From Escherichia coli (GTDB lineage Bacteria > Pseudomonadota > Gammaproteobacteria > Enterobacterales > Enterobacteriaceae), in assembly GCF_003334405.1 (NCBI RefSeq), contig NZ_QOWM01000004.1: a DNA stretch of 64,000 nt; one strand, written 5' to 3'. Numbering within the stretch: the stretch's first letter is position 1; each line of letters starts with the position of its first letter. Shown here piece by piece: positions 4,989 through 11,829 of this stretch. Below the pieces are notes generated by a model. The model did not search any database. It saw nothing but the letters and a program-made list of their open reading frames with translations, and had not been told where the DNA came from. Position numbers and translations under genes: made by a program.

Positions 4989-5159
4989 TATAGCCTAATA
5001 ACGCGCATCTTTCATGACGGCAAACAATAGGGTAGTATTGACAAGCCAATTACAAATCATTAACAAAAAATTGCTCTAAAGCATCCGTATCGCAGGACGC
5101 AAACGCATATGCAACGTGGTGGCAGACGAGCAAACCAGTAGCGCTCGAAGGAGAGGTGA

Positions 5160-6410
5160 ATGGAAAGTAAAGTAGTTGTTCCGGCACAAGGCAAGAAGAT
5201 CACCCTGCAAAACGGCAAACTCAACGTTCCTGAAAATCCGATTATCCCTTACATTGAAGGTGATGGAATCGGTGTAGATGTAACCCCAGCCATGCTGAAA
5301 GTGGTCGACGCTGCAGTCGAGAAAGCCTATAAAGGCGAGCGTAAAATCTCCTGGATGGAAATTTACACCGGTGAAAAATCCACACAGGTTTATGGTCAGG
5401 ACGTCTGGCTGCCTGCTGAAACTCTTGATCTGATTCGTGAATATCGCGTTGCCATTAAAGGTCCGCTGACCACTCCGGTTGGTGGCGGTATTCGCTCTCT
5501 GAACGTTGCCCTGCGCCAGGAACTGGATCTCTACATCTGCCTGCGTCCGGTACGTTACTATCAGGGCACTCCAAGCCCGGTTAAACACCCTGAACTGACC
5601 GATATGGTTATCTTCCGTGAAAACTCGGAAGACATTTATGCGGGTATCGAATGGAAAGCAGACTCTGCCGACGCCGAGAAAGTGATTAAATTCCTGCGTG
5701 AAGAGATGGGGGTGAAGAAAATTCGCTTCCCGGAACATTGTGGTATCGGTATTAAGCCGTGTTCGGAAGAAGGCACCAAACGTCTGGTTCGTGCAGCGAT
5801 CGAATACGCAATTGCTAACGATCGTGACTCTGTGACTCTGGTGCACAAAGGCAACATCATGAAGTTCACCGAAGGAGCGTTTAAAGACTGGGGCTACCAG
5901 CTGGCGCGTGAAGAGTTTGGCGGTGAACTGATCGACGGTGGCCCGTGGCTGAAAGTTAAAAACCCGAACACTGGCAAAGAGATCGTCATTAAAGACGTGA
6001 TTGCTGATGCATTCCTGCAACAGATCCTGCTGCGTCCGGCTGAATATGATGTTATCGCCTGTATGAACCTGAACGGTGACTACATTTCTGACGCCCTGGC
6101 AGCGCAGGTTGGCGGTATCGGTATCGCCCCTGGTGCAAACATCGGTGACGAATGCGCCCTGTTTGAAGCCACCCACGGTACTGCGCCGAAATATGCCGGT
6201 CAGGACAAAGTAAATCCTGGCTCTATTATTCTCTCCGCTGAGATGATGCTGCGCCATATGGGTTGGACTGAAGCGGCTGACCTGATTGTTAAAGGTATGG
6301 AAGGCGCAATCAATGCCAAGACCGTAACTTATGACTTCGAACGTCTGATGGAAGGCGCTAAGCTGCTGAAATGTTCAGAGTTTGGTGAAGCGATCATCGA
6401 AAACATGTAA
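5160..6410 (+). CDS. icd: Isocitrate dehydrogenase (NADP)
   Basis: ORF track 416 aa, [38 protein letters not shown]...; full length with native-looking C-terminus ...[10 protein letters not shown]. Confidence 0.97.
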
Positions 6411-6433
6411 TCTCTCCATGTGTTAAATATTGA

Positions 6434-6462
6434 AACGGGCGTATAACACGCCCGTTGTTTTA
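6434..6462 (+). terminator. Rho-independent terminator downstream of icd
   Basis: Hairpin AACGGGCGT-ataac-ACGCCCGTT followed by a T-run (gtttt), about 25 bp after the icd stop. Confidence 0.6.
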
Positions 6463-6512
6463 TTTATGTGGATATTATTAATAGCATATCGAGCATATTT
6501 ATATGAAGCCCA

Positions 6513-6836
6513 TTACTTGAGCCCATATGGGCATATTTTTATAATGCAACTATTATGTAAACATTTATTTGTTATTTTGCTTTCTCCTGGAGGACACTCT
6601 TGACTGCTTTTGAGTAAACTCCATAAATCCTTGTTGAATGGTGCGATGTGATAAATAGTAATAGGATATTCTTTATCCTTAAGGATAATACCAGACTTAA
6701 CCGGTGTAAATATACTGCCAGGAGGGAGAAATATAGTAGATTGATACCAGATGATCATTTTCATATTACCCCATATGGCTGAAAAAGATATACCACATGT
6801 AGGTTGAATTACCGTGTCAATTACTATCCACTTCAT
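6513..6836 (-). CDS. iraM: Anti-adaptor protein IraM (RssB inhibitor; PhoP-regulated)
   Basis: ORF track 107 aa, [12 protein letters not shown]...ICPYGLK; expected size and position between icd and ycgX; AT-rich. Confidence 0.8.
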
Positions 6837-7297
6837 TTGTTATGTCTTATCCCACGGTATTTAATATGGTTCATTAGGATGTTTATTTCTTGATTTTGCA
6901 TATGAGTATATTACCCCCCCCTCAAAAAAATAAATTAATTAAAATGATGGCTTATATAAAATAAAATTTAAAGCAAGGAATCTCAATGGATGTTAAACAA
7001 AATGAGATTTTGTGAAAGCAATAAATTATTGACTTCGTTTTAGATTTGTTTAGCTATAATGTTATACATTCAAATGACTGAACATCCTGTAATTAAAACA
7101 TAGCCTTTATGCTACTTTGTGCCAATTTGCTAAACATTATGGTTGCCTTTTTATATAACGATAATAATGAATATAAGCATGACATGAGAATAAGGTTTCA
7201 ATTTTTGAGTTATATAGGAATGATTTAACCTGTTCCTGGCTAAAATACATATAACCGGATGATGACTAAACCAAAATACATGTGCGTTAAGTATTGA

Positions 7298-7327
7298 AAC
7301 GGACGTGTGGCACGGCCGTTGTTTTTA
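7298..7327 (+). terminator. Terminator-like hairpin; second copy of the icd terminator repeat
   Basis: AACGGACGTG-tgg-CACGGCCGTT followed by GTTTTT; about 33/40 identical to 6423-6462. Confidence 0.4.
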
Positions 7328-7535
7328 TAAATATGTTAACCGTTATAAAATAACGTATCAAAAGTCAAGTGATCACATTTCAAATATCAAGTTGATAGTA
7401 TTAGTCTGGTGATTATTTATGGGTGACAATAAAAAGACAGTATTAATCATCCATAGAGATAGTCTCTGCACTTTTATTTCCATTATGCTAATGCCTTACT
7501 GAATTATGAAGCATTTCTTAAGTATCCAACTTTAG

Positions 7536-7940
7536 CTAGATTAATGGTTTATTATTTTCTACATCTTCAATATATAAAAGCGTATTATCAATGGCGTAGT
7601 AACTGCGTTTGTTATGATTAACATCAGTAACCCACCGGAAAACGCCCGCGCCTGCCAGTGTTGAACAGTATTCCCGAAATGTAGATTTTCCGCAAATATG
7701 AAGCAATGCGGCCTCTTTTATTTTAGCAGGGTTCTTGGTCGTACTAACTTTTAACAGGTTCCTGGTTCCTCTTAATAACAAAACCGTATCATCGTGAGTA
7801 ATAATTCTGATGTTATCCGTAGCCAGATAATAAATGTAATGTGCAATACGGTGATGTTTTAATTCTGAATAAAACCAGGAGAAGTTTTGCTCTTTTCTCA
7901 CTTGCTCAAACATCTTTTGAAAAACAACGACCTGATCCAT
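7536..7940 (-). CDS. ycgX: DUF1398-family protein YcgX
   Basis: ORF track 134 aa; expected size and position upstream of bluR. Confidence 0.8.
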   Translation of the reverse strand: MDQVVVFQKMFEQVRKEQNFSWFYSELKHHRIAHYIYYLATDNIRIITHDDTVLLLRGTRNLLKVSTTKNPAKIKEAALLHICGKSTFREYCSTLAGAGVFRWVTDVNHNKRSYYAIDNTLLYIEDVENNKPLI

Positions 7941-8160
7941 CAGGATAATAACCTCTTGTTAGTTGTGAGACTGCGTAGTGTGCACGATCGGTTTTACCAC
8001 TTCAATCTGGTCTGTCCTTTGGCTGTGATATGTACAGAGTGTGATAGAGGGAATATCTGAATTCTCCCGGTGAGCATTTTGCAACGGACCAGCTCCGGTA
8101 CAAACGCTGTTGTGGGTTCAGATTATAACATTCTGTCTAAGGGGCGGGATAAAGGTGAAA

Positions 8161-8892
8161 TTAGGGGGCATGAAAGATGACTTTATAACCTTGCTCACCC
8201 CAGTGTTGTAAAAGTTCGTTTTGCCTTCTCGTTGGTGCCATGCCTGTCCAGACAATCAATGTTTGCGTCGGGAACAGTTCCGGGCGCGGCGATTCAATGG
8301 GATCAGCAAGAACAGAAATGTGCCATCCTGACAATGATAAACGCCATGCTTCCAGCCACAATCGTGCTCTCTCTTCAACATTCCACGCCATCAGAATGGC
8401 TTCTTTACCGGGCTTACGGCGCATTTCGAAAAGCGAGGTTGCTGCGTATTCAATTAATGCGCCGTCAAACATACTGCTCATAATGCGGGAGGTGTTGTGA
8501 TCAAGCACGAGACGCTGGCGAACAGGAAGGTAAACATGATTAATCAATTGATCTACTGGGTACTCTCGACCCAGTGAAATAATTCTCGCGCGTAGTTTGG
8601 CAGGATTAGCCATGCGAAGAATTGACATCATCTCTTCTTGCAGGCGGCTCCAGTCATCTTCCGTATCCTGGCTGGTGGTTTCCAGTAATGCTTTAACTTT
8701 GCCTACAGGGACGCCATTACTTATCCAACGCTTGATCTCTTCGATGCGTTGTATGTCTTCTTCATCAAAGAGTCGGTGTCCGCCTTCACTGCGCTGTGGT
8801 TTTAACAAACCGTAGCGGCGTTGCCAGGCCCGGAGAGTGACAGGATTAATCCCGCAACGTTCAGCAACATCACCAATGCTGTAATAAGCCAC
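8161..8892 (-). CDS. bluR: MerR-family repressor BluR (YcgE)
   Basis: ORF track 243 aa; N-terminal MerR helix-turn-helix [47 protein letters not shown]. Confidence 0.9.
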
Positions 8893-8942
8893 AATTCCTC
8901 CTTGCGGTCACAAATCTCCGTCGCCTGTACACGACCCAATAA

Positions 8943-8978
8943 TACTTTGTACAATATACGCTAAAATTGTACAAAGTA
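8943..8978. promoter_or_regulatory. Perfect 13-bp inverted repeat TACTTTGTACAAT-N10-ATTGTACAAAGTA upstream of bluR; candidate operator
   Basis: Read directly from sequence; lies 51-86 bp upstream of the bluR start codon; each arm contains the palindrome TTGTACAA. Confidence 0.35.
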
Positions 8979-9096
8979 TAAATAAGATTTCAGCTAAATT
9001 GGATGAAACATTATTTTTAATGTGGATTAAATTTAAACGTAACGTATTCATTTTTACGATGATTTACTGAAATCATGTGAAAGAATGTGCTGAAAA

Positions 9097-10308
9097 TTAT
9101 TTTTTCTCTGGCCACGCTATGGAAGGGATACCATTCAATTTAGCTTTAGCAAACAGATCTCCCTGAAACATCTCAATTCCTGCGGATTCAAGCCACATCC
9201 ACTCTTCTGGTGTTGCCACGCCCATAGCACTGACTTGAATTTCAAGTGATGTACAGCATTTTATGATCGCCTGAATAATTGCCTGCCGTGGCCCACTTTT
9301 ATGAACATTGGTAATCAATTCCTGACTGATTTTAATTCTGTCAGGCTGGAAGCGTGACAGGAGTAACAAACCAGCAAAACCTGCGCCAAAATGATCAATT
9401 GCTACACTGATACCAGCAGCCTTTAGCGATTTAATCGCTTCGGCAAACTCATCAAACCGAGATATGACTTCACTTTCAGTAAATTCAACGATGATTTGTT
9501 CAGGCACCAGAGCATTGGCCTTTATTTCATTAAGTAAAAAAGAGACTGCGTCAGGTTCGTTAACCAGGGTCATAGGTAATAGATTGATTGAAATCATTTT
9601 ATCACCGAGCTCAAGTGCGTGTGCCATCGTGAATGCAAGCGCCTTACTTTTGAGATCCGCTGTGTAGATTTCCCCGTCTTTACGCTGCCCAACCGCTATG
9701 GCTGATGGGCTATCTTCATTTTTTTGCACAATGGCTTCAAAAGCGATTATCCGCCGCGATAAGGGATCGACAATAGGATGAAAGGCAAAGTGGTCGTTTA
9801 TAGTTGGTGAAAGGGCACAGGAATCAAGTTCTTTATCAGATCCGTCAGCGATAAAAAGCCAGGAGTCTTCGGCAGGGATCTCGAAATAGGTTGATTGTTC
9901 GGTTGCAAGGACAAAAGTACGAAAAAATTGTAGCGCTCTGTCATCATAAGTTAGCTGAAATTTTGATGTGCCTTTGTCGAATACGGCCTGTAAAACGTCA
10001 TCTCGCTCGTGCAGGCGCAAATCAAATAATTCCATTCCCGCTTTGCCAAAACGGCGAGCAGGCGCGTAATCGCACAGCAGCTCAACAATATTATAGTGCC
10101 GTGGATCCTGGCATATAGCCCGATATATCATTTTAACCTGTTCTTCCGGACCTTCCAGAAGCTGGAAAAAATGAGAACCATTAAACAGTAAGATCCCTGT
10201 TACGTCAGACTGCATGTTCCTGCGATTTGCTATCGAAACCATTTCTTCGATTTTTTTGACAGGTTCGTCGTCACGTATATGGCTACGATAAATAAGGGTG
10301 GTAAGCAT
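9097..10308 (-). CDS. bluF: Blue-light sensing BLUF-EAL protein BluF (YcgF)
   Basis: ORF track 9097..10386; recognised start MLTTLIYRSHIRDDEP gives 403 aa; BLUF domain N-terminal, EAL-like domain C-terminal. Confidence 0.9.
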   Translation of the reverse strand: MLTTLIYRSHIRDDEPVKKIEEMVSIANRRNMQSDVTGILLFNGSHFFQLLEGPEEQVKMIYRAICQDPRHYNIVELLCDYAPARRFGKAGMELFDLRLHERDDVLQAVFDKGTSKFQLTYDDRALQFFRTFVLATEQSTYFEIPAEDSWLFIADGSDKELDSCALSPTINDHFAFHPIVDPLSRRIIAFEAIVQKNEDSPSAIAVGQRKDGEIYTADLKSKALAFTMAHALELGDKMISINLLPMTLVNEPDAVSFLLNEIKANALVPEQIIVEFTESEVISRFDEFAEAIKSLKAAGISVAIDHFGAGFAGLLLLSRFQPDRIKISQELITNVHKSGPRQAIIQAIIKCCTSLEIQVSAMGVATPEEWMWLESAGIEMFQGDLFAKAKLNGIPSIAWPEKK

Positions 10309-10539
10309 TAACAATCCAGGGTAATGGGTGAGGCGAGAGTAAGACGGTAACAGACATATCTTCTTGTGTCTTTCTTTTAATACCAAAACATAACCGTTTC
10401 TTTACATTGATAAAAAATGGAAAAAGTTGAACACTAGTTGGCGAAAAATCTTGTATAGATTGTCAGTTAAATGATGCAATATGTTTTATCATAACACATT
10501 GTTTTATATGCATTAGCACTAATTGCAAAAAATTAATTT

Positions 10540-10570
10540 ATCATTCTGTACACATATTTCGTACAATTTT
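10540..10570. promoter_or_regulatory. Candidate BluR operator / ycgZ promoter element
   Basis: TGTACA at 10547-10552 and GTACAAT at 10561-10567 in the bluF-ycgZ divergent intergenic region; same core motif as the palindrome upstream of bluR. Confidence 0.3.
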
Positions 10571-10621
10571 GCTATTGTTACTTCACTTAACATTGATTAA
10601 CATTTTTAACAGAGGCGTAGC

Positions 10622-10858
10622 ATGCATCAAAATTCAGTGACTTTAGATTCTGCGGGAGCAATCACTCGTTACTTTGCAAAAGCTAACTTGCATACTCAGC
10701 AGGAAACTCTCGGGGAAATTGTGACTGAGATTTTGAAAGATGGACGTAATCTGAGTCGAAAGTCGCTTTGTGCCAAACTTCTTTGCCGACTGGAACACGC
10801 GACTGGGGAAGAGGAACAGAAACATTATAATGCACTAATTGGGTTGCTTTTTGAATAA
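10622..10858 (+). CDS. ycgZ: Small regulatory protein YcgZ
   Basis: ORF track 78 aa; first gene of the ycgZ-ymgA-ariR-ymgC cluster. Confidence 0.85.
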   Translation: MHQNSVTLDSAGAITRYFAKANLHTQQETLGEIVTEILKDGRNLSRKSLCAKLLCRLEHATGEEEQKHYNALIGLLFE

Positions 10859-10900
10859 TGCAACAGCCTGATTATTTAACAGGTTAGCTATGAAGTCGTT

Positions 10901-11173
10901 ATGAAGACATCTGATAATGAACGTATAAAATATGAAATTACTGGCCAGGCGGTGCTCCAGATACTGCGCATGAAGATAAATTTTTCATTGCAGACTCTTA
11001 TTAAGCAATTACTCGTAATGAAATCGGCTGAGGAAGATGCTTTCCGACGCGATTTAATTGACAGCATAATTCGTGATTTTAGCAATAGTGATTCAGGAGG
11101 GCCAAACCGAAGAACAGCGACAGCTGACAATAAAAGTATGTTCAATGGTAAGAAAATAAACAGAATACATTAA
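10901..11173 (+). CDS. ymgA: Small protein YmgA (Rcs connector)
   Basis: ORF track 90 aa; expected size and order. Confidence 0.85.
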   Translation: MKTSDNERIKYEITGQAVLQILRMKINFSLQTLIKQLLVMKSAEEDAFRRDLIDSIIRDFSNSDSGGPNRRTATADNKSMFNGKKINRIH

Positions 11174-11201
11174 AATTTCATAAGTAAGATGAGAGGTTAC
11201 C

Positions 11202-11468
11202 ATGCTTGAAGATACTACAATTCATAATGCAATAACTGATAAAGCGTTAGCAAGTTACTTTCGCAGTTCGGGTAATTTGTTAGAAGAAGAATCAGCAGTG
11301 TTAGGGCAGGCTGTCACCAATTTAATGCTTTCAGGCGATAATGTTAATAATAAAAATATTATCTTAAGTCTGATACACTCCTTGGAAACAACAAGTGATA
11401 TTCTCAAAGCTGATGTGATTAGAAAAACACTGGAAATCGTGTTGCGATACACAGCTGATGATATGTAA
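11202..11468 (+). CDS. ariR: Biofilm/acid-resistance regulator AriR (YmgB)
   Basis: ORF track 88 aa; expected size and order. Confidence 0.85.
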
Positions 11469-11580
11469 CTTCTAATTATTAAGTATAAGTTTATAGAAAA
11501 CTCATTCATCTTATTTTTGTCTGTCGCTTTAGACTATACACAGCATAATTTTATTGGGTTAATATTTCTACGAGGCTGAC

Positions 11581-11829
11581 ATGAATAATTCAATCCCAGA
11601 GAGATTTATTTTTCAATGTGCTTTGTTTAAAAATCTCGAGAGGGAGGTGTTCATGACGCATGGGTATGTTGATAGTCATATTATTGATCAGGCTTTACGC
11701 TTGCGTTTAAAAGATGAAACCAGTGTGATTCTTTCTGATCTCTATCTGCAAATATTGCAGTACATTGAAATGCATAAGACTACACTAACGGATATCATTA
11801 TTAATGACAGGGAATCCGTGCTCTCTTAG
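11581..11829 (+). CDS. ymgC: Small protein YmgC
   Basis: ORF track 82 aa; expected size and order. Confidence 0.85.
   Translation: MNNSIPERFIFQCALFKNLEREVFMTHGYVDSHIIDQALRLRLKDETSVILSDLYLQILQYIEMHKTTLTDIIINDRESVLS

Follow-up and report, generated by a model that had tools for sequence, protein, structure and literature searches.

The 3' end of icd is an integration hot spot at which e14 and phage 21 supply a replacement 3' end, displace the far copy and leave direct repeats around foreign DNA. A 64,000-nucleotide stretch of Escherichia coli DNA (contig NZ_QOWM01000004.1 of assembly GCF_003334405.1; hereafter the window) carries a related arrangement at this hot spot. The icd terminator, termed T1, recurs as a second copy, T2, beyond the small gene iraM. 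Whereas integration of the e14 type leaves an icdC pseudogene of 165-168 nt, a distal icdC is missing here, or amounts to 13 nt in a 6.3-kb allele of the locus, and neither the iraM islet nor the 6.3-kb insert has an integrase or arm sites. Our preferred reading, to which we give a probability of roughly 0.7, is that the duplicated icd 3' end marks the ends of acquired phage-related DNA that was later cut down to the islet and then lost in B2-type strains.

The hairpin duplicated in the window is also carried, together with the icd 3' end, by phage-21-like prophages of O157:H7 and E. albertii. Short segments that lack recombination genes and lie between repeats of a target gene's 3' end are also on record. 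Cis-mobilizable elements (CIMEs) have been described for Streptococcus thermophilus ICESt1, and DLP12 is a "grounded" E. coli prophage with a 47-bp argU repeat. The iraM islet resembles CIME-type elements and grounded prophages in this layout, in its proposed reduction from within a larger element, and in being removable by recombination between the repeats, as reported for DLP12 and e14 (PMC6379469). It differs from CIME-type elements in that T1 and T2 have diverged (84% identical in the window and ~93% in other strains).

The gene content also has described counterparts. Phage morons, such as the iraM-like gene of Shiga toxin (Stx) 2c phages, and IraL on the potB island of CFT073 belong to the same family as IraM (PF11183/phrog_4407; PMC4045071). 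They share with iraM the character of a lone small gene that has its own promoter and terminator, is antisense to its surroundings and is horizontally distributed in Escherichia. They differ in that their homology to chromosomal iraM is limited to the open reading frame (ORF).

A duplicated icd terminator

T1 (6417..6461, plus strand) immediately follows icd and contains a hairpin at 6434-6456, AACGGGCGT-ATAAC-ACGCCCGTT, followed by GTTTTATTT. T2 occupies 7279..7325 on the same strand, with its hairpin at 7298-7320, which has an A.G mismatch in the K-12-type haplotype to which the window belongs. A repeat search of the window aligned 6419-6461 with 7283-7325 over 43 nt at a spacing of 864, with 36/43 positions identical (84%). 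If a 2-nt gap is allowed, the repeat starts at a shared CATGT and pairs 6417-6461 with 7279-7325, a unit of 43-47 nt. An earlier reading made from the letters alone (hereafter the sequence-only reading) had matched 6423-6462 to 7287-7327 at ~33/40. That identity is confirmed at 33/40, the end of the second copy has to be moved to 7326, and the proposed slight upstream extension through a shared ACATGTG is recovered with the 2-nt gap, as far as CATGT at 6417/7279.

A 34-nt consensus with six N positions has two matches in the 64 kb, T1 and T2, and none of 100 shuffled sequences gave two matches, but this is weak evidence by itself because the pattern was built from T1 and T2. Similarly, a profile hidden Markov model (HMM) of the unit finds two sites, with E = 1e-26 and 1e-29, values that are partly circular because both copies from the window are in the training alignment. 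The informative part of that search is the lack of a third site, and neither the profile HMM nor sensitive blastn detects a third, older relic of the unit in the 64-kb window.

Stronger evidence comes from other genomes, since all iraM-bearing alleles examined have kept the two copies at the same positions. In strains E24377A, KK19-02, Z1323PEC0013 and SMS-3-5, T2 departs from T1 only in having CG inserted after ACATGTG, one A/G change and a loop altered at two bases (ATAAC to ATGGC), which leaves ~42/45 positions identical plus a 2-nt indel. The further T2 changes seen in the window occur in the K-12-type haplotype alone. Both in Citrobacter and in the 6.3-kb allele, the icd terminator has a flank homologous to the right flank of T2 (TATAAATATGTTAACCGTTATAAAATAACGTATCAAAAG, 7326..7366, plus strand); window positions 7277-7366 align with T1 and its flank in the 6.3-kb allele (L031rc 5106-5194) at 76% identity, with E = 1e-9. 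The original duplication therefore extended ~45 nt beyond the hairpin. T1 and T2 are homologous copies produced by a true duplication. No extension of the repeat into the icd coding sequence was detected in the window, where 195 of 500 shuffled sequences score equally well.

Three alleles with exact junctions at the repeats

Across 5426 complete genomes, the locus takes three forms whose junctions lie exactly at the repeats. The islet allele, with iraM and ymgK between T1 and T2 as in the window, is present in 3944/5426 genomes; 1369 genomes are at least 99% identical to the window and constitute its K-12-type haplotype. The empty allele (1037/5426) has one terminator only, continuous with the T2 right flank. 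A 6.3-kb allele (19/5426) holds a hypothetical gene, an insertion sequence (IS) remnant, trkG, an IraM variant and a ymgB-like gene. The remaining ~426 of the 5426 genomes are outside these three counts.

Carriers of the empty allele include Nissle 1917, the type strain ATCC 11775 and SA186. In this allele, the stop codon of icd (or icdC) is followed by ACATGTGTTAAATATTGAAACGGGCGTATAACACGCCCGTTGTTTT and then directly by TATAAATATGTTAACCG, which begins the T2 right flank. The junction is at the end of the T tract of the hairpin, and the hairpin itself is T1-like. SA186 shows this junction with an intact icd and no prophage. In most empty-allele strains, an island with sitABCD occupies the e14-type position in icd, and the single terminator consequently sits 3' of an icdC pseudogene (examples are L001, L008, L009 and L038, which include Nissle).

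The boundaries of the iraM presence/absence difference are exactly those of the repeats, a comparison that the sequence-only reading had suggested, and the empty allele joins a copy-1-like hairpin to the right flank of copy 2. Nor was iraM found at this locus without copy 2, which is carried by K-12, E24377A, SMS-3-5 (which we take to belong to phylogroups A, B1 and F, respectively) and the 6.3-kb allele. A simple classifier for the three alleles of the locus is available in the single versus double terminator.

Several strains have IS1 or IS200 copies within the iraM islet. In K-12 AG100 (NZ_LN832404.1), the 100% match to window positions 6200-7550 is split in two and spans 84 bp more than the query. 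In the sampled O157:H7 genomes, icd is occupied by a prophage and the whole ymgL-ycgX side is missing. A flank context of the ancestral type, found in two contigs of a viral collection (L066 and L073), occurs in no E. coli genome.

The 6.3-kb allele has the order icd, T1, a gene for a 455-aa hypothetical protein, a transposase remnant, trkG, a gene for an IraM that is 73% identical, a YmgB-family gene, T2, ymgL and ycgX. Z0117EC0005 (NZ_CP098223.1; L036 3814-9146) provides an example, as do L031-L035; the extra gene belongs to the YmgB/AriR family, and some carriers of the allele are labelled "Escherichia sp." Here the repeats are 94-104 nt long and comprise a 13/13 match to the last icd codons (ATCAAGAATATGT), the hairpin and ~45 nt of flank. 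The trkG gene of the insert is ~90% identical to the trkG of K-12 genomes, which is known as a gene of the Rac prophage. The 455-aa protein has no match in Pfam or PADLOC and two weak matches to PHROGs of unknown function. A 40-nt stretch of the window at 18238-18277 (AAAAATGCCTCTTTCTTATGCGGGATATCATCATTTCATC), near ymgI/ymgJ and an autotransporter pseudogene, matches with 92.5% identity a segment that this allele has ~100 nt downstream of trkG, and the 700 bp around it have about three matching places per E. coli genome.

Three blocks of the window's islet region (6475-6841, 6959-7230, and 7287 onwards) have homology to the 6.3-kb allele. At the left islet junction (6462..6512), homology resumes at 6475, directly past T1, and the part of the region upstream of iraM at 6959-7230 is 74% identical to its equivalent. 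Absent from the window are ~4.8 kb of the larger allele, consisting of the ancestral flank, the hypothetical gene, the IS remnant, and trkG with its terminator. T1 retains a Citrobacter-type flank in the 6.3-kb allele and is without it in the window. Both joints of the ~4.8-kb deletion, which lies directly after T1, end in GTTTT, consistent with microhomology-mediated deletion. The simplest reading of these alignments is that the 864-bp islet is the remnant of a larger insert after two deletions, one of ~4.8 kb past T1 and one of the ymgB-like gene. The islet would then not itself be the inserted unit, but the deletion-reduced remainder of something larger.

The lineage that carries the 6.3-kb allele is 93.6% identical to E. 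coli across rluE-nudJ and 96.4-97.2% identical in the 5' part of icd. In the same comparison, strains that we take to represent phylogroups A, B2 and E are 97.6-100% identical to one another, and E. albertii is 91-96% identical. These values place the 6.3-kb lineage outside E. coli sensu stricto. Islets differ between strains by 3-7.6%, and the islet is therefore old. SMS-3-5, whose phylogroup F we take to be the sister of B2 and G, has an islet with both copies that is 93-95% identical to the islets of other strains and is therefore no recent import.

Integration at icd and the origin of the islet

In the window, icd (5160..6410, plus strand) is intact and encodes the "native" C-terminus. The native C-terminus has Glu at a position where the 3' end supplied by e14 encodes Asp, a difference seen after e14 excision (PMC6379469). 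The ORF list of the window includes no integrase, lit, pin or mcrA between icd and ycgX, and therefore no element is integrated in icd here, just as the sequence-only reading had stated in describing an intact icd with iraM next to it and no prophage.

The crossover used by e14-type elements and the sit island, at which icdC starts (approximately 6235..6250), falls outside the repeat, ~170 nt upstream of it. The icdC match begins at window position 6246 for K-12 MG1655 and at 6247-6252 for others. The homology of the e14 type ends at the icd stop codon and does not include the terminator; in MG1655, icdC is left of T1, and iraM follows outside e14. When the repeat is compared with the e14/phage 21 core, as had been proposed, it does not prove to be that core, which is located at ~6246, 165 nt upstream of the stop codon. 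The suggestion that the iraM islet is a relic of site-specific insertion at the icd attachment (att) site thus survives in part. An insertion scar with repeats of the 3' end is present, and an e14-type core and an integrase are not. Direct repeats derived from the icd 3' end, and presence/absence boundaries exactly at those repeats, are what this locus has in common with e14/phage-21-type integration. It lacks a crossover ~165 nt upstream with a distal icdC, an integrase or excisionase, and arm sites.

Other elements at icd do duplicate the terminator. In the icd prophages of O157:H7 and E. albertii, homology to the chromosome stops at the same GTTTT as the repeat of the window. The type strain of E. 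albertii has a prophage at icd that masks its native downstream context. A Citrobacter-like metagenome scaffold (L089, reverse-complement 5347-11776) contains a 6.3-kb island, a prophage remnant, with icd on one side and a displaced icdC with an internal deletion on the other. The island encodes a ycgX-like DUF1398 protein, an AIDA-type autotransporter, a TibC-like glycosyltransferase and a PapB-like protein. On this scaffold, icd and icdC are each followed by the same species-specific terminator, and TTCCCCAAAAC repeats come after the proximal copy. Such TTCCCCAAAAC arm repeats also come after the hairpin in the O157:H7 and E. albertii prophages, so that all three elements (L003, L024 and L089) have them. 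In view of the Citrobacter-like island and the O157:H7 and E. albertii prophages, phage integration that duplicates the icd 3' end plus terminator can be regarded as a demonstrated process at this site.

The genes themselves point to phages. IraM matches phrog_4407 with E = 4e-51 over residues 1-107, and PF11183 is assigned to all 30 full-length relatives in precomputed annotations. Divergent relatives of IraM (50-73% identity) outside the icd locus are all, as sampled, in lambdoid prophages, and 46 phage records, including Stx2c phages, encode an IraM that is 65% identical. The phage gene occupies a slot between Q or stx2B and nanS-p plus lysis genes, antisense to the late operon, and is found in E. 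albertii prophages as well. YcgX matches phrog_413, and its relatives likewise reside in lambdoid prophages. These matches place IraM and YcgX in phage-affiliated families, and YcgX is likewise a lambdoid moron.

In the Stx2-converting phage 1717 (NC_011357.1 26252-26575; L010 4001-4324), the 65% IraM homologue is directly downstream of stx2cB and convergent with it. That position recurs across many Stx2a and Stx2c phages, and non-Stx lambdoid prophages of E. coli and E. albertii use it as well; the gene lacks annotation in many phage records. Phage and chromosomal iraM are 72.6% identical in nucleotides within the ORF only, and their flanks and terminators are unrelated. The Stx2c-phage gene was rejected as the direct donor of the islet, since there is no flank homology beyond the ORF.

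From these observations, a sequence of events can be proposed. Phage-related DNA of several kb would have joined the icd hot spot before E. coli sensu stricto diversified, duplicating a unit that originally comprised the last ~13 nt of icd, the 3' untranslated region, the hairpin and ~45 nt of flank, and of which the hairpin would be what is duplicated today. The 6.3-kb form would survive in the divergent Escherichia lineage. In the E. coli lineage, internal deletions would have produced the 864-bp islet with iraM, its regulatory region and ymgK. Later, T1 and T2 may have served as the substrate for a precise 864-bp deletion that gave the iraM-less allele of B2-type strains. The direction from 6.3 kb to 864 bp to empty is thus one that we infer. 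Because SMS-3-5, taken as phylogroup F, carries the islet, the empty B2-type allele is most simply explained as a secondary deletion between T1 and T2, the crossover of which would be in the last ~15 identical bases.

How the DNA joined the chromosome is a separate question. Integration by an integrase is a tentative answer, at somewhat less than even odds. A staggered or homology-facilitated illegitimate recombination between divergent haplotypes would be an equally good origin, held slightly more tentatively; such a staggered join would be anchored in icd or to the right of ycgX.

Several observations weigh against the preferred reading. No icdC-like sequence is found 5' of T2 in the window, and there are just 13 nt in the 6.3-kb allele. 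In that allele, ancestral chromosomal flank extends for ~150 nt at the icd-proximal copy and for ~45 nt at the distal copy, a distribution that speaks against a simple Campbell integration within the duplicated segment, because the textbook event would leave the rest of the flank after the distal copy. No tyrosine integrase or excisionase is encoded by the ORFs of 6411-7330 or annotated by RefSeq in the 6.3-kb allele, and no arm-type site TTCCCCAAAAC with at most one mismatch occurs in window positions 6400-7600 or in the 6.3-kb insert. The filled alleles differ by 20% in iraM and 11% in ycgX at the nucleotide level, compared with just 1.5-4% in bluR and icd, and allele replacement by recombination is therefore an alternative to vertical descent. 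Finally, one outgroup lineage with this locus was found, and in E. albertii and other Escherichia the relatives of iraM and ycgX are phage-borne or located elsewhere.

The YcgX and IraM relatives of E. albertii and "Escherichia sp. E10V10" were ruled out as orthologous positions, as they are either prophage-borne or at a fliC-yedEF locus. In "Escherichia sp. E10V10" and related genomes (L039-L041 and L088), a 77% YcgX homologue is between yedF (tusA-like) and a GNAT acetyltransferase gene near fliC. A DUF1398 gene has therefore landed at several sites in the genus.

The polarity could be the reverse, with the empty order icd, terminator, ymgL, ycgX ancestral, and the iraM segment inserted later with target duplication and spread by recombination through icd and ycgX-bluR into, among others, phylogroup F and the divergent Escherichia lineage. 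The empty allele is indeed collinear with the ancestral enterobacterial order of terminator then flank, and all empty alleles examined encode one YcgX protein allele, WP_000373104.1, and therefore form a single haplotype. The locus is also mosaic, in that the B2 flank is closer to the K-12-type T2 flank than to that of the B1 type, and the divergence of iraM-ycgX between filled alleles is far above that of the neighbouring genes. However, filled alleles are found in what we take to be phylogroups A, B1 and F and in a lineage outside E. coli sensu stricto, their differences (3-7.6% and ~20%, respectively) are deep rather than recent, and the SMS-3-5 islet is no copy of an A or B1 allele. Several transfers between lineages would be needed in place of one deletion between 45-nt repeats, and we consider the reverse order unlikely.

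Somewhat less likely as an account of the second copy is that T2 has been kept by selection as a bidirectional terminator or insulator, which would end ycgX-ymgL transcription and shield the PhoP-controlled iraM promoter. The likeness of T2 to T1 would then stem from a local copy that selection preserved, and a passive scar of insertion would not be needed to explain it. T2 is positioned exactly between ymgL and the region upstream of iraM and persists in all filled alleles despite 3-20% divergence around it. Several haplotypes have a perfect 9-bp stem on both strands, and the intact T2 of Z1323PEC0013 folds with -15.3 kcal/mol. In the K-12-type haplotype (1369 genomes), however, the stem is broken, and T2 of the window folds with -10.2 kcal/mol (z = -0.08), which is no better than shuffled sequence. 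A C.A mismatch is present in the common B1-type variant, so that two of the three main haplotypes have mismatches, and the minus-strand T tract is poor (TTTCAATACTT). Selection on T2 would also leave unexplained why the duplication takes in 13 nt from the end of icd along with 45 nt of flank. Because T2 has decayed in K-12-type and B1-type haplotypes, its sequence indicates a relic under weak constraint. Selection of this kind concerns maintenance and is compatible with the insertion origin proposed above.

T1 behaves differently from T2: it is invariant while T2 decays. It folds with -18.4 kcal/mol on the plus strand and -17.3 on the minus strand, with a 9-bp stem, and none of 200 shuffled sequences is as stable. 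Every E. coli allele shares the same 24-nt T1 hairpin with the divergent Escherichia lineage, E. albertii and three Citrobacter species, and T1 is therefore the ancestral, constrained icd terminator. When species-representative genomes were scanned with the hairpin pattern, Citrobacter and E. albertii were returned, and no other Escherichia species.

A more far-reaching proposal is that the segment around the icd terminator, from the last codons through the hairpin to ~45 nt of flank, is the att site of elements distinct from e14 and phage 21, that T1-iraM-T2 could still be mobilized by a phage-21-like integrase, and that iraM-ycgX-bluRF-ymgABC was built by serial integrations. We regard this as a long shot. 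If true, iraM would be a mobile cassette for RpoS control, and the stress and biofilm region would have been assembled serially at the icd terminator site. Last, a chance likeness of two unrelated intrinsic terminators, a doubt raised with the sequence-only reading and prompted by the common form of a G+C-rich hairpin plus T run in AT-rich DNA, has next to no probability, given that identity spans the loop-proximal stem, 14 nt 5' of the stem and the T tract, that the copies of other strains differ by three substitutions and one 2-nt indel, that homology also covers flank sequence and, for the 6.3-kb allele, the coding end of icd, and that the profile HMM finds no third site in 64 kb.

Genes, terminators and biological meaning

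The iraM gene (6513..6836, minus strand) encodes a 107-aa protein of PF11183 (the PmrD family) and phrog_4407. Its stop codon, and not its start, faces icd across a gap of 102 bp; the sequence-only reading, which had iraM begin ~100 bp past icd, was right about the distance and wrong about the orientation. IraM is an RssB anti-adaptor induced by Mg2+ starvation (bioRxiv 10.1101/2023.01.07.523045; PMC4045071). The region upstream of iraM (6837..7278, minus strand) has 28-30% G+C and holds ymgK (7093-7137, minus strand; 14 aa), annotated in RefSeq records identical to this stretch. At 7037-7053 it also contains GTTTTAgattTGTTTA, a direct repeat that resembles a PhoP box and is a putative site for PhoP; the repeat lies beside a plus-strand TATAAT and ~200 nt from iraM on its upstream side.

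Beyond T2 are ymgL (7373..7483, minus strand), which is annotated as a 36-aa small protein and kept in filled and empty alleles, and ycgX (7536..7940, minus strand; DUF1398, phrog_413), the first larger gene on that side, after which come bluR and bluF. The ORFs downstream of icd (iraM, ycgX, bluR and bluF) are all on the minus strand, and the genes annotated in the RefSeq records identical to the stretch are iraM, ymgK, ymgL and ycgX only. A tract of low G+C content (28-34%) continues beyond T2 across ymgL and ycgX to ~7900, and T1 and T2 therefore do not enclose all of it. The sequence-only reading had described an AT-rich segment of ~830 bp bracketed by the repeats with iraM alone; its AT-richness holds, its end at the second copy does not, and the 14-aa ymgK is annotated between T1 and T2 besides iraM.

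On the plus strand, the T1 hairpin is followed by GUUUUAUUU, which fits an intrinsic terminator with a stable G+C-rich hairpin and a U tract. On the minus strand, it is followed by TTTCAATATTT and lies 57 nt beyond the iraM stop codon. T1 is thus predicted to end icd transcription. Given that iraM converges on this symmetric hairpin from a distance of 57 nt, and that T-rich tracts border the hairpin in both directions, T1 probably serves as the terminator of icd and iraM alike. In this it would resemble the bidirectional intrinsic terminators found between convergent genes, as would the single terminator of the empty allele, which sits between icd and ymgL-ycgX. T2 may damp read-through from ycgX-ymgL into the iraM promoter region. 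No match to known RNA families comes near its gathering score in 6300-7700, and there is therefore no support for T2 as the end of a known small RNA.

The structure is of a known kind, a decayed insertion that lacks an integrase and has duplicated target flanks at a phage hot spot; the example is new, and the mechanism is not. As a fairly ordinary case of genomic-island decay, it has modest general reach and some value for annotation. An RpoS stabilizer encoded on prophages beside toxin genes may merit attention. The gene iraM has been described as "found on the e14 prophage" (PMC4045071). Its position to the right of icdC/attR, outside e14, and its presence, with or without e14, in 73% of complete E. 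coli genomes correct that placement. The proposed history would explain the E. coli-specific, PhoP-controlled RpoS stabilizer as a phage-family gene left behind at the icd hot spot, and its absence in B2-type strains such as CFT073 and Nissle as the outcome of recombination between the two terminator copies.

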